Below, piece after piece: positions 1-50,406 of a DNA stretch of 64,000 nucleotides. The translations under genes and the position numbers were made by a program. The notes under the pieces are model-generated. The model had not been told where the DNA came from. It did no database searches and saw only the letters and a program-made list of their open reading frames with translations. The stretch lies in sequence record NC_106597.1, one strand, 5' to 3'. Source of the stretch: Escherichia phage BB1. The stretch's first letter is position 1; every line of letters starts with the position of its first letter.

Positions 1-213
1 AGATTGCTGGAAAAACGATAAAAACTTTATGCTTCTTTTTGAGTTTAATGTTGACAATGATACCATCAAAAGTTTTGCACCATTGCCCACAGGTATTTTT
101 GAAAATTTTAAACGATCACATAAGCAAGATGTGGAGTTAACTTTAGAAGAAATTCTAGCGGATGATTGGGAGATTGTTGAGCTAGATGTGTAGCAATTAC
201 CGAAAAATTTCAG

Positions 214-242
214 TTGCTTAATCCTATAATTCTTGATATAAT
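214..242 (+). promoter_or_regulatory. sigma70-type promoter (TTGCTT, 17-bp spacer, TATAAT)
   Basis: Read directly: -35 at 214-219, -10 at 237-242. Confidence 0.55.
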
Positions 243-299
243 ATTCTCATAGTTTGAAAGAACTATTCTGTTTAATTCTTAATTAAGGAAATATAAAAT

Positions 300-710
300 A
301 TGACTACTCCAACTCAGTGGACTGATGAACTGTTCGAAAAAATGTCTTCCGAATACGTTGCTCGTATGGAGCAATTCCCAGAGGATGAACGTCCGGGTGT
401 TAGCATGGAAATTGTTAGCGAAATTGCTCAGGAAAATGGTGTAACTCCGAACGGTTTTCGTATGAAGTTGACCAAAGCAGGTGTATATATCAAGAAAGCT
501 GCTGGCTCTGCTTCTAAATCTAGCGCATCTACTGGAGAAAAGGCTTCTGGTGGTTCTCGTACTTCCAAAGCCCAAGCTCATGCCGACCTTCGTTCAGCAT
601 TCTCTGATGCTGGCTTAGCCCCAGATTTTCTGGATGATGCAATTATCGACAAACTGACCGGTAAAGCGGCTGCTCATCTGGCAGAAGCAATCCGAGCTAT
701 CACTAAGTAA
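300..710 (+). CDS. hypothetical protein with HTH-like motif; shares a ~25-aa motif with ORF 3436..4203 and ORF 49446..49853
   Basis: ORF with AAGGAA ribosome-binding site 8 nt upstream; host-like codon choice (ctg/cgt/gct); consensus promoter directly upstream. Confidence 0.6.
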   Translation: MTTPTQWTDELFEKMSSEYVARMEQFPEDERPGVSMEIVSEIAQENGVTPNGFRMKLTKAGVYIKKAAGSASKSSASTGEKASGGSRTSKAQAHADLRSAFSDAGLAPDFLDDAIIDKLTGKAAAHLAEAIRAITK

Positions 711-746
711 TTTTAGATAAATCCACCAACAAAAGGAACTACAGTT

Positions 747-1043
747 ATGACCAAAGCTGAAATTATCGCACAATGTGAAAAATTTGGTGAGTTTTATCTT
801 CATTACGAGAAACTTCGTCAGAAAGGAACCACGTACCTTCAGGGTACGATGGAATTTGATCCAGCCCAAGATAAATATCTGGCTGAGCGTATTAAACGTG
901 AACGTATTCGTAAAGCGAAAGATGATGAGATCCTTGTCTTCTCTCGTACTAATGATAGCTTCCGTTTTATTCCTGTCGAAAAAGTCCGTCGTGTGACTAG
1001 CCTCCAATCAGAGTTAGATCGTGCTTCTCCAGTAGGCCGATAA
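747..1043 (+). CDS. hypothetical protein
   Basis: ORF with AAGGAA RBS; followed by rho-independent terminator. Confidence 0.55.
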   Translation: MTKAEIIAQCEKFGEFYLHYEKLRQKGTTYLQGTMEFDPAQDKYLAERIKRERIRKAKDDEILVFSRTNDSFRFIPVEKVRRVTSLQSELDRASPVGR

Positions 1044-1053
1044 GAAACCAATT

Positions 1054-1076
1054 AGCCCCTATATGGGGCTTTTTGT
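1054..1076 (+). terminator. rho-independent terminator
   Basis: AGCCCC-TATAT-GGGGCT followed by TTTTT. Confidence 0.7.
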
Positions 1077-1093
1077 GTATTTGGGATATGTAA

Positions 1094-1402
1094 ATGAGCG
1101 AACAGGTAAATCAAAACTATGAAGGACACGTTGATGACCAGTCCATCATACTTTGGGAGAAGGAGGGAGAACAAGTAAGACTAACAGTATCTGAATTTCG
1201 TGGGAATCTATACATGGGTATTCGTTACTGGCTTCTTGATATTAATGATGAATGGTTTCCAACGAAATCTGGCTTCTCTTTTCCTTACACCCTAGAAACA
1301 ACATCACAGCTTTTCTATGCGTTTACACAGATTCTTAGCGAATCTGAGGTTTTACATGAAGTACAGAAACGAGCTGAAGAACTCAAAGCCAAGAATGCCT
1401 AG
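1094..1402 (+). CDS. hypothetical protein
   Basis: ORF bracketed by two terminators; weak RBS. Confidence 0.45.
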   Translation: MSEQVNQNYEGHVDDQSIILWEKEGEQVRLTVSEFRGNLYMGIRYWLLDINDEWFPTKSGFSFPYTLETTSQLFYAFTQILSESEVLHEVQKRAEELKAKNA

Positions 1403-1416
1403 TTCTTGGCTTTTTC
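1388..1416 (+). terminator. rho-independent terminator overlapping stop codon
   Basis: GCCAAGAA-TGCCTAG-TTCTTGGC followed by TTTTT. Confidence 0.7.
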
Positions 1417-1429
1417 TTTATAAATGTAT

Positions 1430-1458
1430 TTGCTTTCAACTCAGTTTTATTATATAAT
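1430..1458 (+). promoter_or_regulatory. sigma70-type promoter upstream of ligase N-terminal subunit
   Basis: -35 TTGCTT 1430-1435, 17-bp spacer, -10 TATAAT 1453-1458; downstream ATTTATATAAATTGAT identical to the ligase C-subunit promoter. Confidence 0.6.
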
Positions 1459-1489
1459 ATTTATATAAATTGATGAGAGATATAAATAA

Positions 1490-2461
1490 ATGACTAATGT
1501 AAAAGACTTTATTAAACGCTGTCAAGAAGCATATTATCAAGGTATGTCTTTAATCTCTGATGAGGAGTATGATTGCCTGGTAAAACGCTTCCCATTAGAA
1601 GAAGAGATCGGACCTAAGGGTGATATTCCACATCTATATCGTATGTATTCTTTACAGAAAGTTTATTATAATCGTGGAGATAAACCCCCATTCAACCCAT
1701 TAGGTCAGGTAGAAACTGATAAGTTAGATGGTTGTGCGATTTCTCTGTTATATATTAATGGAGAATTTGTTCAAGCACTAACTCGTGGCAATGGTATTCT
1801 GGGAAATGATGTCACAAGCAACGTAAGATTGCTGAATATCCCTAAAAAGATTTCCCAAAAAATACCTACTCAAATCACTGGTGAAGTTCTAATTACAAAA
1901 GAAGTAGAAAATAAACGTAACTTTGCCTCTGGTGCTATTAACCTCAAAGATAGCGATGATTTCGTACAGCGTATCGGGGAAGGTGGTTTAATCTTCGTCG
2001 CATATGGCATTCAGTGTTCTGCTGAATCTGTAGGTATTACAGAAGCATATTTAAAAGATATGCTTTGGCTGGAGAATGAGAACTTCTTAACAGTTGTTAA
2101 TGTACGTTCCTTCTTTAAATGGATTCCGACGGACGGTAAAGTTGTTCGTATTAATGACAACAACAAATTCTTCCGTGAAGGCTGGACTAATAAATTCCCT
2201 CGCGGGGCGTTCGCTATTAAAGAGGATGAAGAAGGCGAGATTACAACTCTTACTAAAGTTGAATGGCAGGTAGGGGCTTCTGGTAAAGTAACTCCAGTTG
2301 GTTATTTCGAACCGGTAATTATTGATGATGCTACAATTGTTAAAGCGACTCTTAATAACGTTGATTATATTAACTCTCTCGATCTAGAGATCGGTTGCCA
2401 GATTCGAGTGATTCGTGCTGGTGGTGTAATCCCGTGCATAGTAGAGCGAGTATACGATTAA
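1490..2461 (+). CDS. NAD-dependent DNA ligase, N-terminal (adenylation) subunit
   Basis: KxDG adenylation motif (ETDKLDGCAISLLY); own consensus promoter; T5-like phages carry a split NAD ligase. Confidence 0.8.
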   Translation: MTNVKDFIKRCQEAYYQGMSLISDEEYDCLVKRFPLEEEIGPKGDIPHLYRMYSLQKVYYNRGDKPPFNPLGQVETDKLDGCAISLLYINGEFVQALTRGNGILGNDVTSNVRLLNIPKKISQKIPTQITGEVLITKEVENKRNFASGAINLKDSDDFVQRIGEGGLIFVAYGIQCSAESVGITEAYLKDMLWLENENFLTVVNVRSFFKWIPTDGKVVRINDNNKFFREGWTNKFPRGAFAIKEDEEGEITTLTKVEWQVGASGKVTPVGYFEPVIIDDATIVKATLNNVDYINSLDLEIGCQIRVIRAGGVIPCIVERVYD

Positions 2462-2511
2462 TACATAACCCTTTGCTACCCATCTACCATATCGGAATTA
2501 TAAAGTGGTTA

Positions 2512-2540
2512 TTGACATTTTCGCCGCTTAGGTATATACT
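2512..2540 (+). promoter_or_regulatory. sigma70-type promoter (TTGACA, 17 bp, TATACT)
   Basis: Read directly in the ligase intergenic region. Confidence 0.45.
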
Positions 2541-2604
2541 ATTATCATTCAGTTGAGGGATAGAAAGTTATGGCGAGGGTAAGCAAAGTTAGTTAAAATT
2601 GTAG

Positions 2605-2633
2605 TTGCTAAATGCTTAAATACTTGCTATAAT
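2605..2633 (+). promoter_or_regulatory. sigma70-type promoter upstream of ligase C-terminal subunit
   Basis: -35 TTGCTA 2605-2610, 17-bp spacer, -10 TATAAT 2628-2633. Confidence 0.6.
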
Positions 2634-2663
2634 ATTTATATAAATTGATAAGGAAGAAATTTG

Positions 2664-3443
2664 ATGAAAATCGAAATTCCAACACAATGTCCCTCTTGTG
2701 GTTCTAAGCTAGATCTTGTCAACGGACAATTATTCTGTCGGAATAAGTCCAACTGTCCAGCGCAATCAAGCAAGTTAATTGAGAACTTCTGTTCAAAAAT
2801 GAAGTTAAAGGGCTTTGGCCCAAAAACTATTGAGAAGCTGGAGCTGACGAAGATTTCAGAACTATTTTACCTAACCGAAGAAGATTTGGTTAGAGCCGTG
2901 GGTAGCAAGGTTGCCGCTAAGTTAATTAGCGAATTAAATACTAAAGTTCGCGGAGACATTGACTTTGGTTCAGTTCTCGGTTCTTTAGGAATCCCTCTAA
3001 TTGGAGAGGTTGCAGCAAAGAAATTATCCCAAAATTGCACTAGCTTCCATGATGTGAAGGCTGACGGCAAGGCTGGAGAAAATTATAAAGCCTGGCTAAA
3101 TTCCCCACAAGGCAAGGATGTTATCGAATTACCGTGGAAATTTTCAACTGGTATTAAGGGCACTAAAGCTGACGTCATCATTACAGATGAATTAGTTGCC
3201 CAGCCAAATGGAATCGCGGTATGTATTACCGGATCTTTGCAAGATTTTGCAAATCGAACGGATGCAACAAACTATTTAGAAAGTCTAGGGTATACGGTTA
3301 AGAAATCCGTTACCAAAGACGTCAAATACCTAATCTGTGAGGATGAATCGAAGCGTTCTTCCTCATCTTATAAGAAAGCCGAAACGAATGGGATAGAAAT
3401 CCTGTCGATTAAAGAACTATTGGAGAAAAATAATAATGTCTAA
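2664..3443 (+). CDS. NAD-dependent DNA ligase, C-terminal subunit (Zn-finger/HhH/BRCT)
   Basis: Four-Cys zinc finger (CPSCGSKL...CRNKSNCPAQ); start moved to ATG 2664, 7 nt after AAGGAAG; track ORF begins at TTG 2661. Confidence 0.75.
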   Translation: MKIEIPTQCPSCGSKLDLVNGQLFCRNKSNCPAQSSKLIENFCSKMKLKGFGPKTIEKLELTKISELFYLTEEDLVRAVGSKVAAKLISELNTKVRGDIDFGSVLGSLGIPLIGEVAAKKLSQNCTSFHDVKADGKAGENYKAWLNSPQGKDVIELPWKFSTGIKGTKADVIITDELVAQPNGIAVCITGSLQDFANRTDATNYLESLGYTVKKSVTKDVKYLICEDESKRSSSSYKKAETNGIEILSIKELLEKNNNV

Positions 3444-4203
3444 ACTGAACTGGAACGTAGAAGGTGTAACCGAGTCTCTGAAAGCAAAAGCCACTGCTCT
3501 GGGTGTTTCTGTAATCTCTCAAGAACAAGTAGCTGCTATCGCTACTGAACTGGCTGCTGAAACTGGCAAAGATGTTACTGCTCGCTCTGTTGGCTCTAAA
3601 CTGCGTAAAGAAGGTTTTGAAGTACAGAAAGCTAACGAAGTACAGAAATCCCCGTGGACTCCTGAGCAGGAAGCTGAACTGGTTGATTTCCTGAACGCTC
3701 ATGCTGGTCAGTATACCTATGCTGAAATCGCTGCTGCTGTAGCTGGTGGTCAGTTCGGTGCTAAACAGGTACAGGGTAAGATCCTGAGTCTGGAAATGAC
3801 TGCTTCTGTTAAACCAACTGAAAAAGCTGCTGCTGTTCGTTCCTTTACTCCGGATGAAGAAACTGATTTTGTTAATCAGGTTGTTGCTGGTGCTACTATT
3901 GAAGCTATCGCTGCTCACTTCGGTCGTAATATCAAGCAGATCCGTGGTAAAGCTCTGAGCCTGCTTCGTGAAGGTCGTATCGCTGCTATGCCGGTACAGG
4001 AAACCTCAAGTGCTAAAACTCGTGAAGATCTGTTAGAAGGTCTGGATCTGGCTAACATGACTGTTGCTGAGATCGCTGAGAAAACTGGTAAATCTGAGCG
4101 CGGTGTTAAATCTATGCTGTCTCGTCGTGGTCTGGTTGCTAAGGACTATGATGGTGCCGCTAAGCGTGCTAAACTGGATGCAAAAGCTGCGGCTGCTGAA
4201 TAA
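3436..4203 (+). CDS. putative abundant DNA-binding protein with four tandem HTH-like repeats (possibly T5 D5-like)
   Basis: Strong host-like codon bias; four internal repeats of a LuxR/sigma region-4-like motif (e.g. VAEIAEKTGKSERGVKSMLSRRGLVAK); size fits a ~28 kDa protein. Confidence 0.45.
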   Translation: MSKLNWNVEGVTESLKAKATALGVSVISQEQVAAIATELAAETGKDVTARSVGSKLRKEGFEVQKANEVQKSPWTPEQEAELVDFLNAHAGQYTYAEIAAAVAGGQFGAKQVQGKILSLEMTASVKPTEKAAAVRSFTPDEETDFVNQVVAGATIEAIAAHFGRNIKQIRGKALSLLREGRIAAMPVQETSSAKTREDLLEGLDLANMTVAEIAEKTGKSERGVKSMLSRRGLVAKDYDGAAKRAKLDAKAAAAE

Positions 4204-4220
4204 TCTGGTAAATTAAACCT

Positions 4221-4253
4221 AAGGGGAGGGGGCTATGCTCCTTCCCCTTTTTG
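4221..4253 (+). terminator. rho-independent terminator
   Basis: AAGGGGAGGGGG...CCTTCCCCTT followed by T-run. Confidence 0.7.
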
Positions 4254-4285
4254 CATTTAGAAGGCACGAAAGCGTGCAAAGGAGA

Positions 4286-5758
4286 ATGACCTTGTTTAAC
4301 GTGCAAGCTGTAGTGTTGAAGATGCTTCTAGCTTCTGAACAGAAGCAAATAGCATTGGAAACATTCTCAAAACTGCATAAAGATCATTTTAATGACGCTT
4401 TCTCCTCAATTTACCAAGCCGTCCAGAATTATTATAAAAAATATAACACAATGCCGTCCATTGATGCACTGATGCTTGAGGCTAATAGGAACGCCCGCCT
4501 TTCTCAAGCTCTAGTCGTCTTAGCTAACACTCAAATTCCAGAAGTGAGCATGGAACAGGCACTTGAAGTCCTAGAGGCCGAATATACACAGGATTTATTC
4601 CTGAAGCTTCTAGAAACAGACGTGCTTCAAGATTTAACAATGCTGGATCAGGGAGAAATTCTCAACCGAGTTGCCTCCCTTCACTTAAAATTAGAAGAGA
4701 AAGTAACGAATACTGGAAAAGTATTCAACGCAGATAACATGCGTATTTTCCAGAGAGAAGAAGATACCAAACTGAACCTAATCGCTCTTGGTATTTGTAA
4801 TGAGTTCGACGCTCAAATTGGTTTAGCTCGCACAGAAACGTTACTGCTTGGTGGTTGGCGTGGTACTGGTAAATCCATTATCTGTTCAAACATACAGGTT
4901 CAGCAATATTTGAATGGAGATATTGCTCCATACTTCTCAATTGAGATGAAAGAACATGAAGTATTTAGACGTAATCTAGCCATGTTAGCTGGTGTATCAG
5001 CATTAGCAATGCGTAATAATACTCTAGAAGGTGCAGCTCTGTTGAGATTGGCCAGAACTAGAGCTAGAATGTTTAATGGGGGTGAAGAGCTTTTTGATAA
5101 CTTCGTTAAACAGTACACAATGGCTAAGATGAGTGATTTCTACGATATGGAGAGTAAGCTAATAGAGGGATATGAACTACATACTCCCATGATTATTGTT
5201 TATGATCCTGAACTGTCCATTACAACAGTTGACGTAGAATTAAATAAATTAGTTGCTAGATACGGAGATAAAGTTACAGTAGCTTTACTGGACTATATTA
5301 ACCAAACCCGACTTCCAGACTCTAAAACCATTGATATGTATGACTGGAAAGAACAGATGGTTGTTAGCTCGTCTTTCAAATCTATCTGCCAGAAACATAA
5401 CGTGGCTGGCGTAGCTCCTTACCAGATCGATCAAGATGGTAGAACACGTATGTCAAAGGGGATTCTTGATTCTGCAGACATGGCTGCTAATCTTAATGCT
5501 GCAAAAGCTGATAATGGTCAAGGTGCTATTATGTTTGACTTCGTTAAGACTCGTTCTTCTGATAGCGTGAAGTTTATGCCTAAAATGAACTGGGAAACCC
5601 TGCGGATGGATAACACTACCAACCTAGCAATGGAAGATATATCTCAAATGGAAGCTGAGTTCGTTATCCCTATTGAGAAGGATAAGCCGGCTCAACCTAA
5701 ACGTGCTAAGAAAGACAAAGCTGAAAATTCAACAGGTGAACAGGCCAGCGATATATGA
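4286..5758 (+). CDS. DnaB-like replicative helicase / RecA-fold ATPase
   Basis: P-loop LGGWRGTGKS; sits directly upstream of primase; track ORF start 4235 lies inside a terminator hairpin so start is probably ATG 4286 or TTG 4292. Confidence 0.55.
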   Translation: MTLFNVQAVVLKMLLASEQKQIALETFSKLHKDHFNDAFSSIYQAVQNYYKKYNTMPSIDALMLEANRNARLSQALVVLANTQIPEVSMEQALEVLEAEYTQDLFLKLLETDVLQDLTMLDQGEILNRVASLHLKLEEKVTNTGKVFNADNMRIFQREEDTKLNLIALGICNEFDAQIGLARTETLLLGGWRGTGKSIICSNIQVQQYLNGDIAPYFSIEMKEHEVFRRNLAMLAGVSALAMRNNTLEGAALLRLARTRARMFNGGEELFDNFVKQYTMAKMSDFYDMESKLIEGYELHTPMIIVYDPELSITTVDVELNKLVARYGDKVTVALLDYINQTRLPDSKTIDMYDWKEQMVVSSSFKSICQKHNVAGVAPYQIDQDGRTRMSKGILDSADMAANLNAAKADNGQGAIMFDFVKTRSSDSVKFMPKMNWETLRMDNTTNLAMEDISQMEAEFVIPIEKDKPAQPKRAKKDKAENSTGEQASDI

Positions 5759-6645
5759 GTAGAATAACAGAACTACTTGATCTGAAAGGCATTGAATATA
5801 AAGACACAGGTGGGGACATCCTCATCTGTTGTCTCAATCCAGATCATGACGATAAACACCCAAGTTTGCGTATTGATCCTGAAACAGGTATTATGCACTG
5901 CTTGAGTTGTGGCTTCGGTAAAGGTATACCGAGCATTTACCATTATTTTAATGAGACTCAGTACCGACAGTCCCCAAGACTATCACAGGTACGTAAAAAG
6001 ATTTCAGAGATTAGGAATGGATCTACGAATCTTGCAATTCCTGAATCTGCTTACCTTTTCGAAGGTGATTTCCGAGGTATAAGTTCTAAGACCTTGAAGA
6101 AATATTTTGCTTTCCAACACCAAGCAGACTGGGAAGGCAGAATTGTATTCCCAATCACAGATGCTGTTGGACGCAATATCCTATTTTTGGGTCGTTCTAT
6201 AAACAGTTCTGCCCCTCCTAAATACCTAGTAAAACCAAAACAAGTTTCACCGCCAATTTTTCCTGTACGATATAATACTCCAGTTCTTATTCTAGTTGAA
6301 GGTATCTTTGATATGCTGAATCTAGAGGATAATGGTATAGACTATGCTTCTTGTTGCTTTGGTACACATCAGTTTACTTCAGACAACATTGCAGATAAGT
6401 TCAGTCCGTATATTATTGCTGGTGTTAAAGTTGTTGTTATCTTACTAGATAATGATGCTTCTGGTAATAAAGCTGCACAAGCACTGGCTAAGCTAATTCG
6501 TACAAAAACGCGTTTAACACCTGTAGTTGCTAACTTTCTTCTGCCTGAAGGTAAAGACCCAGGTGACTTAAATAAAGAAGAAATTGATATGTTAGCAAAA
6601 CGTATTGAAATTTTAGTTGCTGAATCGCTTAAAGATTTGGTATAA
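5755..6645 (+). CDS. DNA primase (CHC2 zinc finger + TOPRIM)
   Basis: CxxH...CxxC zinc finger (CLNPDHDDKHP...HCLSCG); TOPRIM-like LVEGIFDMLNL and acidic LLDNDASG; ATGA overlap with helicase. Confidence 0.7.
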   Translation: MSRITELLDLKGIEYKDTGGDILICCLNPDHDDKHPSLRIDPETGIMHCLSCGFGKGIPSIYHYFNETQYRQSPRLSQVRKKISEIRNGSTNLAIPESAYLFEGDFRGISSKTLKKYFAFQHQADWEGRIVFPITDAVGRNILFLGRSINSSAPPKYLVKPKQVSPPIFPVRYNTPVLILVEGIFDMLNLEDNGIDYASCCFGTHQFTSDNIADKFSPYIIAGVKVVVILLDNDASGNKAAQALAKLIRTKTRLTPVVANFLLPEGKDPGDLNKEEIDMLAKRIEILVAESLKDLV

Positions 6646-11721: not shown

Positions 11722-12006
11722 ATGCTTACAGAGCCTGATGCTCACCAATTATTGGTCGGTTCTTCATTCATTTTGAATGAATCAACAATAGTTGATAATC
11801 CAAATAAATTGTCTAATAGACAACTGGCAGAATATCTAGGAATTTTAAGTCTACGAAATTATGCCGAATACAAGTTTACAAACGATCCTAGTTTGGACAT
11901 ACAATATGTTCCAGTATGGATACCACGTTTAGTAATCGACACTAACCCACTAATCGCAATTAACAAATCGAAATTAATCTTTAAAGAGGAAATAAAATAT
12001 GGCTAA
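11722..12006 (+). CDS. hypothetical small protein (doubtful)
   Basis: ORF without RBS, lying in a long leader downstream of two strong promoters. Confidence 0.25.
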   Translation: MLTEPDAHQLLVGSSFILNESTIVDNPNKLSNRQLAEYLGILSLRNYAEYKFTNDPSLDIQYVPVWIPRLVIDTNPLIAINKSKLIFKEEIKYG

Positions 12007-12772
12007 GTCTTGGGGCGAAACTACTGGCGGTTCTAATGATAAAATCGAATTCCTGAAGTTCAACAACGGTATCACTCGTGTTCGTATCGTTTCTGGTGTT
12101 CTTCCACGTTATGTCTATTGGCTGACTAATAAAGAGGGTAGCGTAGCTCCTTTCGAATGTCTCCGTTTTAACCGTGACAAAGAGAGCTTTGTTCGTGGTA
12201 AAGCCGATCCGGTTCATGAGATGGGCTTCTTCGAGAAAGAGCTGGATAAAGATGGTAATCGTGTTCCGCTGAAACCGAAGAAAAACTATATCGCTTTTGT
12301 TATCGACCGTTCTGATAACAAACTGAAAGTAATGGAAGTCAAGGCTACTATTCTGAAAGGCATCCAGTCTATCATGAAGCAGTTGAATCTGGCAACCCCA
12401 TTTGATATTGATATTTCTATCGAGAAAAAAGGTAAAGGTTTCGATACTGAGTATGACGTACAGCAGATTGCTGCTATGCAGTTCCAGATTAAGCTGCAAG
12501 ATCCTAACAGTGCAGAATCTAAGCAATATGCTGCAGACGTAGATCTAATCGGTGAAGCTATGTGTGACGAAGATGGCGACATCATTAAGTTCGAAAAAGT
12601 TCCTTCTCTGGAACAAACCTATCCGGTTCCTACCTATGAAGAGCAGAAAGAAGCGATTCAAGCCTTCATGGAAGGTCGTGAGAATAAAGATGATGATGCC
12701 AAATCTGGTAATAGCAATGCGGGCTCCCAGAAAGGTATTGACTCAGAAGCTGCAAGCGATCTGGACGACTAA
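11999..12772 (+). CDS. D11-position protein; possible ssDNA-binding protein
   Basis: Good RBS AAAGAGGAAA; host-like codons; acidic C-terminal tail (SEAASDLDD); terminator follows. Confidence 0.4.
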   Translation: MAKSWGETTGGSNDKIEFLKFNNGITRVRIVSGVLPRYVYWLTNKEGSVAPFECLRFNRDKESFVRGKADPVHEMGFFEKELDKDGNRVPLKPKKNYIAFVIDRSDNKLKVMEVKATILKGIQSIMKQLNLATPFDIDISIEKKGKGFDTEYDVQQIAAMQFQIKLQDPNSAESKQYAADVDLIGEAMCDEDGDIIKFEKVPSLEQTYPVPTYEEQKEAIQAFMEGRENKDDDAKSGNSNAGSQKGIDSEAASDLDD

Positions 12773-36471: not shown

Positions 36472-37848
36472 TTAAGATGCAGCGTAAGCACCAGATACAA
36501 CGCCATTATTAAAGTAACGTTGCAGGTTAACACGCTGAGTAACGTAGTACGCATCACGCTGTTTACCAGCTTGGCGCTCACGTTCAACAGTAACAGCACG
36601 CTGACGTGGCATTACGAAGTTATCTTTGTAAACAATAACTGCGAACTCTGCGGAGGTAGCTTTAGCCGGGAAGTACTCAGAAACTACAACCGGCAGACCG
36701 TAAATACGACCAACCTGACCTTGCAGTTTAACAGCATCATTACCAACCTGGGCAACATCCTGCCATTCTTCATCTTCCAGCAGATCGTAATAAGCATCCA
36801 TAGATACGATCAGTACCAGTTTGCTCAGTTTCAGACCATGACGGCCCAATTTACGACGCAGTTTAGAGATAGTTTTAGCAGTTACCAGAACAGAACCATC
36901 AGCTTTAGCTTCAGTAATAACTTTAGCACTGTCTTCACTAGCAAGAGTCAGCAGACCTTTCGGCTTACCAGAACCATCACCAGTCATGAAAGCTTCTTCG
37001 ATAGAAACAGCATGTGCTTCAATCAGACGCTTACGAAGCAGTGGCAGCAAGGAGAAGATTGCATCTTCTTCAGTTTCATCAGTAATGAAGGATTTAGCAG
37101 CCAGTTTGTAAGTTTTGAAACTGATCTCTTTAAGAGCGCCTTTAACTTCATTACCAGTAGTAGCATCAGTACCGTAAGTAGCGGCATCTACCCAAGTAGC
37201 TTTACCAGCATCTGGTTCAACCAGCATAGTAAGAATTTTGCTGGACATTGGCAGTTCTTCAAACAGAGCACCAACTACTAGTTCTTTCTGCAGGTCACGA
37301 ATAATACGCTGGGAGAAAATAGTTTCATAGCTTTCACTAGAAACTTCTACTGAAGAGGACTGGTTTACAGTTTTCAGGTGTCTCTGGCCATGTTCGGTAT
37401 CAAATACACCTTTTTCCATCACGTAGGACAGAAGAACCAGTTTCTCCACTTCGTCTTCAAAGTTTTCTTGAGTACCGTACAGTGCTTTAGCTACGCTATC
37501 ACCGACGAAGGAACGCCCTTCACGAGCTGCCAGCAGAGATTTGATTTCGTCCTGAAGACCAACAATAGTTTCCTGCTGTTTTTCTACAGTCTGTGCAAAC
37601 AGTTCTGCGCTCTTCTTGGATTTTTCATCCAGGGATTTAACCAGTTCCAGAGCTTCTTCTAGCTTCTGACGATCTTCGCCAACTGCTTTAGAAACCAGAT
37701 CATTCATACGAGCCAGTTCTTTTTCTTCCTGCTCTTTACGCATACGTTCAGCTTCCTGAGCTTTCTGAGCAGCGGTCAGACCTTCCAGAGATTTAGCCAG
37801 ATCACCCAGACCAAGTTCTTCTTTCAGCTTATTAATATCAATAGTCAT
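36472..37848 (-). CDS. major capsid protein precursor with N-terminal scaffold-like domain
   Basis: 458 aa; N-terminal ~150 aa charged coiled-coil, then HK97-like region; strong terminator immediately downstream. Confidence 0.8.
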   Translation of the reverse strand: MTIDINKLKEELGLGDLAKSLEGLTAAQKAQEAERMRKEQEEKELARMNDLVSKAVGEDRQKLEEALELVKSLDEKSKKSAELFAQTVEKQQETIVGLQDEIKSLLAAREGRSFVGDSVAKALYGTQENFEDEVEKLVLLSYVMEKGVFDTEHGQRHLKTVNQSSSVEVSSESYETIFSQRIIRDLQKELVVGALFEELPMSSKILTMLVEPDAGKATWVDAATYGTDATTGNEVKGALKEISFKTYKLAAKSFITDETEEDAIFSLLPLLRKRLIEAHAVSIEEAFMTGDGSGKPKGLLTLASEDSAKVITEAKADGSVLVTAKTISKLRRKLGRHGLKLSKLVLIVSMDAYYDLLEDEEWQDVAQVGNDAVKLQGQVGRIYGLPVVVSEYFPAKATSAEFAVIVYKDNFVMPRQRAVTVERERQAGKQRDAYYVTQRVNLQRYFNNGVVSGAYAAS

Positions 37849-47089: not shown

Positions 47090-47347
47090 TTATTTGATAA
47101 TAATCTGCATTTGGTACGGCGTTAATTCACCGTTTACGGGTAAATTATTATCACTCAACCATTCATAAAAAGCGTCATCATCATCAAAAGGAACAACATC
47201 ATTATCACGATAATCGACCGTAATAATACCATCAGTATTAGTTTTAGCGGCTAGGATAGGCCCGAAGCTGTAAACTTTATCGGATTCCATTTCATCCGGT
47301 GAAATGAATGCTTTTTCGTCCAATGTTTTGGGTAGTGTAACTTTCAT
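47090..47347 (-). CDS. pre-early hypothetical protein
   Basis: Start moved to ATG 47347 (AGGAG 7 nt upstream); track ORF begins at TTG 47380. Confidence 0.45.
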   Translation of the reverse strand: MKVTLPKTLDEKAFISPDEMESDKVYSFGPILAAKTNTDGIITVDYRDNDVVPFDDDDAFYEWLSDNNLPVNGELTPYQMQIIIK

Positions 47348-47401
47348 TTTTTGACTCCTGTAATAGCGGCTATATTTCAAGCCGCTAGGGGAATAATTTA
47401 A

Positions 47402-49066
47402 TTATGCGAAGAATTTACCATTCTTAAAGTCGATCAAAGTACGCTGACCGTTTGCATAGGTAATTAAATGCGTTTGCGTCCAGCTTGACGCGCCAACGTT
47501 GTAACCCATATCCAGACTACCAGCTACTCCAGCGGTATAAACGCCACCGTAAATGCTAGCGGTATGGGTGTGTCCCGTGTTTAGCTTGCCCAATTTCTTA
47601 AACTGTTTAGGATTGCCACGACTGCCGTTAATGCCGTTGTGACCGTGTACACCGCACTCAATGCCTGCAATCTTGAAAGATTGGTCAGTGGTTAGGAAAA
47701 TGGCGTTAAACTCACAACCTGCAACCTTGCGCAGCGCATAATCTAGCACGTTAAAAGTATCATCATGATCACTGATCGCCGCGTAAATTGCAGCATTCAG
47801 GCGGTGATATAGTTCGGCGTTGGCTGGATCGTCTTTGATGTTAGCATTACGATCATCTAACCAGCGGGATAGCGCCAAATCGTGATTAGATTCAACAATG
47901 ATTGTTTGAGAGAAATCACGTTCCATTGATTCCAGCACGCGCCCCGTATCGATAAGATCATCCAGAACTTTATCACGTCCAGCGGCATACTGTTTTGCTA
48001 GGAATACACCGGATGCACGGTTATGATGATTGCGCGATGTAAAATCATGCACGTCATGAATAAACTGATATTTAGGTTTAAGAATATCAAGCAAGCTATT
48101 TTCGCCAGCCCATGACGCAACGGCACAATCATCATCTAATTTTTCGGCGTGAATATCGCCATATTGCAAGCCTAAAACATGCCCCGACGTTTCATAGCAT
48201 CCAGCAGGAGTAGCGCAAACATTCAGATCATAAAACACCCCGCTTTCATCCATCGTTTCAAGCTGGCGAACAAAAAATTCCCCGTCGTCGTCGAACTCAA
48301 CAATAAGCGCACCGAAGTTATGCAGCGCCTCGGCCTTTTGTCCTGCTTTCTGCTGAATGTAGTTTTTGAGCGTTGCCGTTCCGGTTGAATACATACGGCG
48401 CACTACTTCACCTTTTAAAGCTGGCACGCTTTCAGCGGTAATTTTAGCGTGACCAATTGCCAGCCCTTCAATATTTAAAGCCGTTGCAGTTTCTGCAAAT
48501 CCTGAAAGCGGATAGTCTGCGGTAGGCAAAACATTAATTTCAGCCATGAAAGCAAAACGGCGGTTATTTAAAAACACGTTTTTGCTGCAAATATATTTAT
48601 CAAATGCGGGATCGTATTTGATACCGTCTGCACCTTCTCCATTCTGGAAGCCGTTTTTATTATAAATATACTTAGAAACAAGCAAATCAGCACCGATATA
48701 TTCAGCGAATTTTTCCAGACTTGCTAAAAAGTTTTTATGTGGGAAAGTATTATTCTGAATCGACGTAATAATAAAGCGTTTACCCTGTTTTACTTCCCAT
48801 TGCTCAACCGTACTAGAAACAATCCCCGCCGCTTCTGGGCGCTCATCGTTTTTAATGGCTTTTGCTACTTTTGCCGCTTTCGGTTTAGCTGGTTTATTTG
48901 CTTCCAGCCAGTCGCAGATAGCGGTTGAATGCTTCGTTGTATCGTAGACCGCTTTTGATATATCGTCGCAGACTTCCAGTTTAGTAGCGCGCAGACGTTT
49001 ACCATAGAAATTAAAGTCAGCGGCCATTTTCAGGATAACGGTTTGTTTTTCTGCGGAAATAATCAT
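47402..49066 (-). CDS. A1: A1-like pre-early protein with metallophosphoesterase motifs
   Basis: 554 aa; GDIH, SNHD and GHTH motifs in calcineurin-like order. Confidence 0.65.
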   Translation of the reverse strand: MIISAEKQTVILKMAADFNFYGKRLRATKLEVCDDISKAVYDTTKHSTAICDWLEANKPAKPKAAKVAKAIKNDERPEAAGIVSSTVEQWEVKQGKRFIITSIQNNTFPHKNFLASLEKFAEYIGADLLVSKYIYNKNGFQNGEGADGIKYDPAFDKYICSKNVFLNNRRFAFMAEINVLPTADYPLSGFAETATALNIEGLAIGHAKITAESVPALKGEVVRRMYSTGTATLKNYIQQKAGQKAEALHNFGALIVEFDDDGEFFVRQLETMDESGVFYDLNVCATPAGCYETSGHVLGLQYGDIHAEKLDDDCAVASWAGENSLLDILKPKYQFIHDVHDFTSRNHHNRASGVFLAKQYAAGRDKVLDDLIDTGRVLESMERDFSQTIIVESNHDLALSRWLDDRNANIKDDPANAELYHRLNAAIYAAISDHDDTFNVLDYALRKVAGCEFNAIFLTTDQSFKIAGIECGVHGHNGINGSRGNPKQFKKLGKLNTGHTHTASIYGGVYTAGVAGSLDMGYNVGASSWTQTHLITYANGQRTLIDFKNGKFFA

Positions 49067-49156
49067 AGTAATAAAACTCCATTAAAGGGATTAGATTAAT
49101 AACGGCAATATTGCCAAATATAACGCCTCAAATAATAGGCGTTATAATTTGCAACA

Positions 49157-49354
49157 TTAATTTAAAGGCACTAGGCTAGAACTAACACCACAAGCAACGG
49201 CAGCGATAAAACAAAGCAAGCCCAAACGTTTTGCTAACTTAGATTTACGTTTAAAATAATATGAATCTAAATCATTTTGAAAATAAGCAAATAATAATGA
49301 GGCCGCCATAATAAACAAGCCTAGAATTAATGATTCAGTAGGAAAGAAAATCAT
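49157..49354 (-). CDS. small membrane protein (two predicted TM helices)
   Basis: 65-aa ORF with conserved upstream RBS element. Confidence 0.4.
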   Translation of the reverse strand: MIFFPTESLILGLFIMAASLLFAYFQNDLDSYYFKRKSKLAKRLGLLCFIAAVACGVSSSLVPLN

Positions 49355-49445
49355 TTTTTAAAACTCCTGATTTAAGGGAAGAAAATAACTATCGCTAAAC
49401 AGTTATATTATTGCCCCCTCACTAAAAGGGGGCAAGGTATAACTA

Positions 49446-49853
49446 TTATTCGCCTGCGGCTTGTTTTACTTCATCGGCAACGCCTAACAGTTGCGCTACT
49501 GCGTCCAGCGTTTCAAGTTTTGCACTTTCCAGACTTGCCAGATCGTCGGCGTCTTTGATAATGCCGGAATCAATAGCATGTTTAGCGATAACGCGCACAT
49601 AGTGAGCTTTACGCACAGAGCTACCGCCACCAACTTTACGCGGCTTATCGCTTTTTTGATAGGCTTTTGCACTGGTCAATTTTGAGCGAACGGATACAGG
49701 GGAAGCCGCGCCAACTGCTTTTGCAATCTCTTTTAAACCGTCGCTATTTGCGAAATCTAAACCGTTTTCATTAATTAACTGCTGATACATGGAAACAGCT
49801 TTCTGAGTGTTTTCTTCATTCCATGCGAATTTTGCGGTTTTAACGTTAGTCAT
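49446..49853 (-). CDS. putative DNA-binding protein (A2 candidate; shares motif with ORFs 300..710 and 3436..4203)
   Basis: 135 aa; basic stretch KPRKVGGGSSVRKAHYVR and HTH-like motif; conserved upstream RBS element. Confidence 0.4.
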   Translation of the reverse strand: MTNVKTAKFAWNEENTQKAVSMYQQLINENGLDFANSDGLKEIAKAVGAASPVSVRSKLTSAKAYQKSDKPRKVGGGSSVRKAHYVRVIAKHAIDSGIIKDADDLASLESAKLETLDAVAQLLGVADEVKQAAGE

Positions 49854-49951
49854 GATATAAACTCCTATTAGTTTAATTTAAGGGATTAGATTAACTTAAT
49901 GTTAATCGTTATATCCCCCTGAAATAAGGGGGATATAAAGTTAACACTAAA

Positions 49952-50203
49952 TTACAGAACAGCTTCCCATTTTTCGTTACGTTGAACAACCTTTACAACG
50001 TCGCCGGATTTAACGCGAACGTTAAAAACAGGTTTGCCGTTGTTACTACGTTCATTTTCAACATATACCGCGTCGATTGTATCAAACGGCATAAGCGCCG
50101 CGCCTTTAATACGTTCGGCCTTTCCGGTTAATTCATCCGTTTTAGTAACGAAAGGAATAAAAACGGATTGACCAATTTTTGGCGCGGTAATAACGTTTTG
50201 CAT
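49952..50203 (-). CDS. pre-early hypothetical protein
   Basis: 83-aa ORF with GGAG RBS; downstream of a large palindrome. Confidence 0.45.
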   Translation of the reverse strand: MQNVITAPKIGQSVFIPFVTKTDELTGKAERIKGAALMPFDTIDAVYVENERSNNGKPVFNVRVKSGDVVKVVQRNEKWEAVL

Positions 50204-50227
50204 AATATAAACTCCGAGTTATTTGGT

Positions 50228-50278
50228 GGATTGTTCCGCATTACCTGCTAGAAAGTAGCAGGTAATAAGTAACAATCC
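50228..50278. repeat. 51-bp compound palindrome
   Basis: GGATTGTT-CCGC-ATTACCTGCTA-GAAAG-TAGCAGGTAAT-AAGT-AACAATCC. Confidence 0.6.
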
Positions 50279-50406
50279 GCTCGCCAGTATAATCGATTTA
50301 AAGAACTCCACGTAGGCCGCTATATCCCAGTTAGGGGGCGGGATGCATTATGGTAAGCACCGACCGTCAAATTTTATCAAGTTATCGCTCTTATCGAACT
50401 GGGTAC

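Follow-up and report, generated by a model that had tools for sequence, protein, structure and literature searches.

We analysed a 64,000-nucleotide (nt) stretch of the genome of Escherichia phage BB1 (NC_106597.1), referred to below as the window, with a focus on three open reading frames (ORFs) at 300-710, 3436-4203 and 49446-49853. An original prediction had proposed that the three encoded proteins share a helix-turn-helix (HTH)-like motif, present in four tandem copies in the second of them, and that they possibly correspond to the D5 and A2 proteins of phage T5. The three ORFs were found at these coordinates, and all the peptides quoted for them were present. Positions 1-6000 showed 98.5% identity with Escherichia phage slur09 and about 98% with many Salmonella and Escherichia Tequintavirus genomes, and positions 47300-50300 matched the pre-early region of these same phages. 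In PHROGs, the ORF at 3436-4203 matched phrog_323, 'transcriptional regulator, D5-like' (E 3e-71, amino acids (aa) 1-253), and the ORFs at 300-710 and 49446-49853 shared phrog_1725, 'DNA binding protein' (E 1.7e-50 and 3.4e-52, respectively). Relatives annotate the first ORF as 'D3 protein' or 'DNA binding protein' (PS3-1, slur09) and the second as 'D5 protein' (PS3-1), and the third, which adjoins A1, is labelled 'A2 protein' in many T5-like genomes. The 554-aa ORF at 47402-49066 is named A1 or DNA transfer protein in the matching genomes, so that A2 is pre-early and lies beside A1. D5 is located in the early replication cluster, with a split NAD-dependent ligase on one side and a DnaB-like helicase on the other. 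Precomputed assignments, which concern homologs and not the window proteins themselves, place the Pfam model PF26822 (Phage_T5_A2) on all listed A2 homologs; D3 and D5 homologs are matched only faintly. We identify the phage as T5-like and the three ORFs as its D5, D3 and A2 genes, orthologous to those of T5 and without any material difference from them. The guess of T5 D5 and A2 was thus correct on the PHROG matches and the annotation of relatives, and the third protein is D3.

Homologs were gathered for each protein, the family alignments were cut into units (D5 aa 1-68, 69-128, 129-190 and 191-243, and the N- and C-terminal halves of D3 and A2), and the unit profiles were compared by hhalign. 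Pairwise BLASTP among the three proteins was marginal and too weak to decide: D3 and A2 matched at E 0.004, D3 and D5 at E 0.01-0.017 on two different D5 repeats, and A2 and D5 gave no match. The profiles linked D5 repeat 2 with D5 repeat 3 (P 1.8e-9), D5 repeat 1 with the A2 N-domain (P 3.8e-9, probability 96%), the D3 with the A2 N-domain (P 1e-7), and the D3 N-domain with D5 repeat 4 (P 7.8e-7) and D5 repeat 1 (P 1e-6). The five strongest links scored 34-46. D5 repeats 2 and 3 were connected more weakly to the other units (P 6e-5 to 2e-4), and as controls, the C-terminal halves of D3 and A2 reached no P value below 0.006. When forward profiles were compared with reversed ones as a null, the top score between families was 14.3, and profiles against their own reverse scored up to 24.2, whereas all 15 real unit pairs scored 17.7-45.9. 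Moreover, when the 511 ORFs with 40 aa or more that a six-frame translation of the whole window yields were searched with hidden Markov models (HMMs) of the units, only D5, D3 and A2 were matched, the next best match having E > 0.2. In this search the D5 repeat 1 model found A2 at 6e-5 and D3 at 2e-3, and the D3 N-domain model found A2 at 3e-5 and D5 at 5e-4.

A joint alignment of the six unit types was consistent along the whole domain. Helix 1 starts with W or F followed by [TNS]-x-[ED], with one aromatic residue per unit. After a variable loop comes helix 2, which has a Ser/Thr cap and terminates in I-A-x-x-x-G, and then helix 3 with the pattern x-x-[VI]-[RG]-x-K-[LI]. Judged by these sequence profiles, the units of D5, D3 and A2 share a common ancestry. 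The shared motif proposed for the three proteins was therefore confirmed by alignment statistics at the profile level (P 2e-9 to 1e-6 for the five strongest links), pairwise BLASTP alone being weak. The four tandem copies in D5 were also found, but not the unit size of about 30 aa that had been given for them: the domain measures 50-60 aa, and the motif first noticed is its helices 2 and 3.

We then considered the architecture of each protein (Table 1). With 108 homologs as input, AlphaFold2 gave a model of D5 with a mean predicted local distance difference test (pLDDT) score of 90.3 and a predicted template modelling (pTM) score of 0.38, which indicates four confidently folded units whose mutual arrangement is not fixed. 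The units were predicted to fold as helical HTH modules, so that the HTH fold expected by the original prediction was recovered. Among about 100 D5 homologs, the family-invariant residues are W6, R50, K55 and R57 in repeat 1, Q113, G114, K115 and L117 in repeat 2, and G171-K172 in repeat 3. At the DNA level, the D5 gene showed only Ala-codon low-complexity matches as repeats, indicating that the duplication is ancient; a recent duplication within D5 was rejected for want of any such sign. The D3 model (pLDDT 78) consists of the N-domain, a disordered linker and a second small helical domain. The GGxRTSKA motif of the D3 linker is conserved in the family alignment and aligns with GGGSSxRKAH of A2; the linker of A2 is the best-conserved part of that protein. 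In the C-domain of D3, K118, T120, G121, K122 and A124 are invariant, and L119 and A123 are conserved in at least 90%. Neither D5, D3 nor A2 contains any Cys, so the D3 C-domain is not a zinc finger. Pfam and NCBIfam scans of D3 and A2, with PF26822 apparently not among the models run, returned nothing meaningful.

Table 1. Features of the D3, D5 and A2 loci and of other highly codon-adapted genes in the window.
Feature	Position	Strand	Details
Candidate early promoter 5' of D3	about 214..245	+	TTGCTT, 17 nt spacer, TATAAT; ATATT overlapping the -10 end
D3 gene	300..710	+	136 aa, 14.5 kDa, pI 5.7; paralog of A2; CAI 0.551, rank 3/67
D3 N-terminal three-helix HTH domain	315..485	+	aa 6-62; helices 9-23, 31-45, 50-60; motif first noticed = helices 2-3
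D3 disordered Ser/Gly-rich linker	498..566	+	aa 67-89; pLDDT < 50 at 68-86; ends GG-x-R-T-S-K-A
D3 C-terminal small helical domain	567..704	+	helices 90-103, 113-117, 121-135; conserved D-K-L-T-G-K-A-A
D5 gene	3436..4203	+	255 aa, 27.1 kDa, pI 6.8; CAI 0.735, rank 1/67
D5 HTH repeat 1	3445..3615	+	aa 4-60; helices 11-22, 29-43, 49-58; nearest unit: A2 N-domain
D5 HTH repeat 2	3649..3795	+	aa 72-120; helices 76-88, 95-101, 109-118
D5 HTH repeat 3	3838..3975	+	aa 135-180; helices 139-150, 155-162, 166-178; most GcrA-like unit in sequence
D5 HTH repeat 4	4021..4134	+	aa 196-233; rudimentary helix 1 at 205-207, helices 210-217, 221-231
D5 C-terminal basic Ala-rich helix	4153..4197	+	aa 240-254; net charge +2
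Strong intrinsic-terminator-like hairpin	4221..4258	+	13 bp stem and T-run, 18 nt after the D5 stop codon
A2 gene	49446..49853	-	135 aa, 14.3 kDa, pI 8.8; pre-early
A2 N-terminal HTH domain	49659..49829	-	aa 9-65; hhalign to D5 repeat 1 and D3 N-domain
A2 basic linker	49602..49658	-	aa 66-84, net charge +5; K-S-D-K-P-R-K-V-G-G-G-S-S-x-R-K-A-H
A2 acidic C-terminal helical region (predicted)	49449..49601	-	aa 85-135, net charge -5
ORFs 3' of A2	49157-49354; 47402-49066	-	65-aa ORF, then A1 as the next long gene
High-CAI trio: SSB, 83-aa ORF, major head protein	11999-12772; 49952-50203; 36472-37848	+; -; -	coordinates listed as a group

As for the fold class, the combined unit profile matched, in the PDB, a designed homeodomain (E 5e-4), the Myb-like DNA-binding domain of Timeless (1e-3), c-Myb (0.03) and, over the entire domain, GcrA (0.04). 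Only this combined profile finds GcrA, which was not among the matches of PDB searches with HMMs of the full D5 and D3 families. In a direct comparison, D5 repeat 3 aligned with the GcrA DNA-binding domain essentially without gaps (P 1.2e-5, score 27.5), whereas 100 shuffles gave a maximum score of 14.9 (z about 9); the GcrA sequence was checked against the PDB. An N-terminal three-helix DNA-binding domain of the GcrA type is therefore present. In the crystal structure of GcrA with DNA, helix 2, the turn and helix 3 sit in the major groove, with W3, S20-22 and K39 contacting phosphates and R33, N34, I37 and R42 contacting bases. The D5 invariants W6, R50, K55, R57, Q113-G114-K115 and G171-K172 align with DNA-contact positions of GcrA, and the conserved Lys of the 'SKL' segment of the motif aligns with the phosphate-contacting K39. 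GcrA itself consists of the DNA-binding domain, an unstructured linker and a loop-rich CCCH zinc-finger domain that binds sigma-70, and its DNA-binding domain has been reported to be structurally closest to sigma region 4. The Pfam GcrA model (PF07750) had no match in D3, D5 or A2 at E <= 1, nor in 29 members of the D3 family at E <= 10.

Similarly, Sigma70_r4_2 (PF08281) matched D5 repeat 4 at aa 204-230 with 29.3 bits against a cutoff of 25.7. There was no Sigma70_r2 match in D5, the Sigma70_r3 match was below threshold and on the same HTH, and the sigma-70 family model TIGR02937 reached 15 bits against a cutoff of 42.9. D5 as a sigma factor was rejected, since regions 2 and 3 are missing; the region 4 match covers only 27 HTH residues. 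A Myb protein was likewise rejected: Myb_DNA-binding (PF00249) scored 17.5 bits where 24.4 are required, and the units lack a regular series of three Trp residues. The Pfam Myb and HTH_23 scores were all under the gathering cut-offs. Against 1.84 billion representative sequences, the unit profile gave 3725 matches, which beyond D5 orthologs were mostly generic poly-HTH arrays (HTH_7, HTH_23, Myb), so the profile is not specific enough for a narrow family. The 'phage-specific' family of the original prediction was not supported, because tri-helical HTH domains form a broad class, in which that of D5, D3 and A2 stands together with Myb-like domains, sigma-70 region 4 and the DNA-binding domain of GcrA. 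We also observed metagenomic proteins of 600-1570 aa with 9-22 tandem tri-helical HTH units (HTH_7, HTH_23, Myb and some GcrA), and one metagenomic tandem-HTH protein is fused to a superfamily 2 (SF2) helicase.

The adaptation of codon usage to E. coli was assessed by the codon adaptation index (CAI), with weights from the Sharp-Li table and ranks among the 67 ORFs of the window. D5 ranked first with 0.735 (z +16 relative to the codon usage of the whole window), followed by the major head protein (0.641), D3 (0.551, rank 3), the single-stranded DNA-binding protein (SSB) of phrog_1607 (0.535) and A2 (0.468, rank 5). Host-optimal codons had been predicted for D3 and D5, in agreement with these values. 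In this phage, high codon adaptation seems to go with stoichiometric proteins, and the extreme CAI of D5, above both the head protein and the SSB, argues for a stoichiometric DNA-coating protein and not a low-copy regulator. Consequently, of the proposed 'DNA-binding regulators', the DNA binding of D5 and A2 agrees with the literature, but a low-copy regulator is disfavoured for D5. An 83-aa pre-early ORF belonging to phrog_3747 had a CAI of 0.464; in a related phage, the corresponding ORF upstream of A2 contains DUF7177. D5 was reported among the most abundant proteins in purified virions of phiR2-01, a T5-like phage (PMC8624392). D5 is no known T5 virion component, and its presence there could reflect carry-over on DNA or genuine packaging.

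DNA binding by D5 and A2 has been established by experiment, according to the title of McCorquodale 1979, as cited in PMC12630848, and to the Davison preprint (10.1101/866236), and the former, as cited there, has the DNA-binding protein D5 affecting replication and late expression. A2 has been reported to bind double-stranded DNA (dsDNA) as a dimer, to associate with A1 and to be indispensable for second-step transfer. According to a July 2026 preprint (bioRxiv 10.64898/2026.07.11.737809), D5 is monomeric (26 kDa), has an HTH fold, binds the stem-loop of retron multicopy single-stranded DNA (msDNA) and triggers retron-Kva2, and escape mutations were found in D5 (G53D, W74*, V149I, G232D) and D3 (E30Q, G85D). 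On our domain map, G53D falls in helix 3 of D5 repeat 1, W74* on the Trp in the first helix of repeat 2, V149I in the corresponding helix of repeat 3, and G232D on the Gly directly after helix 3 of repeat 4; G85D of D3 falls in its conserved GG motif.

Based on these results, we consider it likely that D5, D3 and A2 are paralogous dsDNA binders built from one ancient three-helix HTH module of 50-60 aa, with D5 an abundant four-module coat. For the binding geometry of D5, its non-specific coating and the roles of the C-domains of D3 and A2, we infer the following. D5 would be a very abundant early protein, with its four modules on flexible linkers and a short basic C-terminal helix. The third helix of each module, which contains the V-x-S-K-L segment, would enter the major groove, and four modules per chain would allow a high-avidity, low-specificity and probably cooperative coating of duplex phage DNA. 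Such a coat could control the access of DNA polymerase and RNA polymerase to the DNA, and this would explain the known effects of D5 on replication and late gene expression. This is also consistent with D5 being a 26 kDa monomer that binds the retron msDNA stem-loop. D3 (early) and A2 (pre-early), each with one module, a basic Gly-rich linker and a small helical C-domain, would bind DNA through the N-domain, and the linker and C-domain may serve in dimerisation or partner binding, because A2 is reported as a dimer that associates with A1. A2 would then act on first-step-transfer DNA, and D3 on replicating DNA.

Several points weigh against this coating model. D5 has no net positive charge at its pI of 6.8, and its units are neutral or acidic, which is unusual for a pure coating protein. 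A Foldseek search of the PDB with the whole D5 model gave no significant match (best E 0.06). Repeats 2 and 3 are linked to the remaining units with scores of 24-26, about as high as the two top scores of profiles against their own reverse (24.2 and 21.9). The C-terminal halves of D3 and A2 have no significant similarity (P 0.06), and their local alignment reaches the first C-terminal helix only. Furthermore, the non-specific nature of the coating rests on codon bias, the multivalent architecture and older biochemistry. The weak or absent pairwise BLASTP matches, the short and recurrent nature of HTH motifs and the scores of up to 24 for profiles against their own reverse would also fit a motif that arose by convergence or chance in Ala/Lys-rich helices of three unrelated HTH or helical proteins. 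We hold this to be extremely improbable: the five strongest profile links lie far beyond any null, and the similarity runs through helices 1, 2 and 3, from the W-[TN]-x-E at the beginning of helix 1 onward, and is not confined to the HTH turn. In addition, PHROGs independently merges D3 and A2, the Pfam A2 model faintly matches D3 and D5 homologs, and cross-matches among the window ORFs are limited to D5, D3 and A2.

More weight attaches to the possibility that D5 is a sequence-specific transcription factor or a sigma-appropriating factor, whose modules, repeat 4 above all, would read defined elements of late or early promoters and directly switch host RNA polymerase from early to late genes. 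The above-threshold Sigma70_r4_2 match on repeat 4 fits this view, as does the requirement of late gene expression for D5, going by a title cited in PMC12630848. The mechanism of the T5 early-to-late switch is unexplained, with both gene classes using sigma-70 promoters (PMC7472727); residues at base-contact positions differ among the four units, as they would for a composite recognition site; and some genome annotations read 'sigma 70' or 'transcription factor'. However, the GcrA DNA-binding domain is itself sigma-4-like, so that the Pfam match reflects the fold and not a sigma function, and D5 has no sigma-2 or sigma-3 region. The highest CAI in the window, above that of the major head protein, suits a stoichiometric protein better, and RNA polymerase purified from T5-infected cells held only gpA1, pb8 and gp026, not D5. 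On balance we regard a site-specific D5 as unlikely. It is very unlikely, in our estimate, that D3 and A2 act as GcrA analogues, with the N-domain on DNA and the C-domain docking sigma-70 or RNA polymerase, as transcription cofactors for temporal gene classes. They have the same three-part layout as GcrA, whose DNA-binding domain is the best structural match; in older work, small pre-early (11 kDa) and early (15 kDa) T5 proteins co-purify with RNA polymerase, as does A1, the partner of A2. The C-domain of GcrA, however, is a CCCH zinc finger, which the Cys-free D3 and A2 cannot form, and for D3 a helical C-domain is predicted. Neither protein is matched by the Pfam GcrA model or was found by mass spectrometry in RNA polymerase preparations from T5-infected cells, and A2 is dispensable for transcription shut-off. 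Such a sigma-cofactor role was largely rejected on the missing zinc finger, the helical C-domain of D3 and the absence from these preparations. A bolder proposal, which we think improbable, is that A2, D3 and D5 form a temporal series of GcrA-type DNA readers, T5's own chromatin, which recognises structure and not sequence. If true, the targets would be features such as nicks, stem-loops and injection-stop repeats, in keeping with the binding of D5 to the msDNA stem-loop, and the paralogs with one and with four modules would occupy the DNA in turn, driving second-step transfer and afterwards the early-to-late switch.

The genes surrounding D3 and D5 keep the order D3, an unnamed ORF, a PC4-like gene, ligase A, ligase B, D5, the DnaB-like helicase, primase and DNA polymerase, which is retained even where the D3 homolog has 35% identity. 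With only three of six matches in its -35 hexamer, the candidate D3 promoter escaped a consensus scan and was recognised by inspecting the sequence. For T5 early promoters, ATATT is the reported discriminator consensus (PMC7472727). The 102-aa ORF at 1094-1402 (+), between D3 and the ligase, matched Pfam PC4 above threshold (E 8e-8) and is the PC4-like single-stranded DNA-binding protein of T5-like phages, which PHROGs and some genomes call a 'transcriptional regulator'. The NAD-dependent DNA ligase is split into ORFs at 1490-2461 and 2661-3443 (+), and the gap of about 200 nt between them contains two good sigma-70-like promoters at 2512-2540 and 2605-2633. The first 8 nt of D5 overlap the end of the second ligase ORF, stop codon included. 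Given this overlap and the promoters in the gap, D5 is probably co-transcribed with ligase B. The hairpin downstream of D5 contains the ATG at 4235 with which the DnaB-like helicase ORF (4235-5758) starts, both here and in slur09. The ATG at 4286, preceded by AGGAG, looks like a better helicase start, and the PHROG helicase profile aligns only from aa 15. In slur09, an extra 534-nt ORF occupies the helicase-primase interval and is absent from the window (5755), and PS3-1 has an extra ORF before ligase A. These extra ORFs are probably mobile insertions of the homing-endonuclease type that vary among T5-like genomes.

Homologs of D5 numbered 904 at E <= 0.001, mostly of 240-260 aa. Orthologs occur as one copy each in 901 phage records of 105-123 kb, with Escherichia, Salmonella, Klebsiella, Vibrio, Proteus, Aeromonas, Pectobacterium and others as hosts, and they are annotated inconsistently as 'hypothetical protein', 'DNA binding protein', 'transcription factor' or 'sigma 70'. 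D5 and A2 are essential T5 proteins with decades of study behind them, A2 for second-step DNA transfer and D5 for replication control and the early-to-late switch. The organising fact is one GcrA-type three-helix module that occurs four times in D5 and once each in A2 and D3. The module map supplies domain boundaries for constructs, predicts the conserved Lys, Arg and Gly of helix 3 as DNA-contact residues, and assigns positions to the four D5 mutations found in the phage that escapes retron-Kva2. It would also let annotation be harmonised over about 900 Demerecviridae-type genomes. We came across no paper that describes D5 as four repeats of the module of A2 and D3, or that assigns this module to the GcrA type.

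Compared with known systems, D5, D3 and A2 have the same fold as the DNA-binding domain of GcrA and probably a common origin with it, yet they do not belong to the GcrA family. Caulobacter crescentus GcrA (PDB 5yiu, 7ye1; PF07750) has one DNA-binding domain, whereas D5 has four; GcrA also carries the CCCH sigma-interacting domain, in contrast to the Cys-free phage proteins and the predicted helical C-domain of D3. The residues with which GcrA recognises methylated GANTC (R33, N34, I37, R42) are not conserved as a set in the phage units. The likeness to sigma-70 region 4 (PF08281) lies in D5 repeat 4, above the Pfam gathering threshold. Myb R2R3 proteins have three regularly spaced Trp residues per repeat, whereas each phage unit has one aromatic residue (W or F). 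The tandem-HTH architecture as such is of a known kind, and other tandem-HTH binders (the archaeal CRISPR-repeat-binding protein Cbp2, PDB 2lvs; Myb R2R3; the Timeless DNA-binding domain; the bipartite DNA-binding domains of Tc3/mariner transposases) differ from D5 with its four units, very high expression and origin in a lytic phage. Existing T5 annotation is silent on D5 being four copies of a domain that is single in A2 and D3. This four-fold module is an incremental insight into long-known T5 DNA-binding proteins and no new kind of system, and the gene order and sizes of D5, D3 and A2 in the window are the same as in sequenced Tequintavirus genomes.

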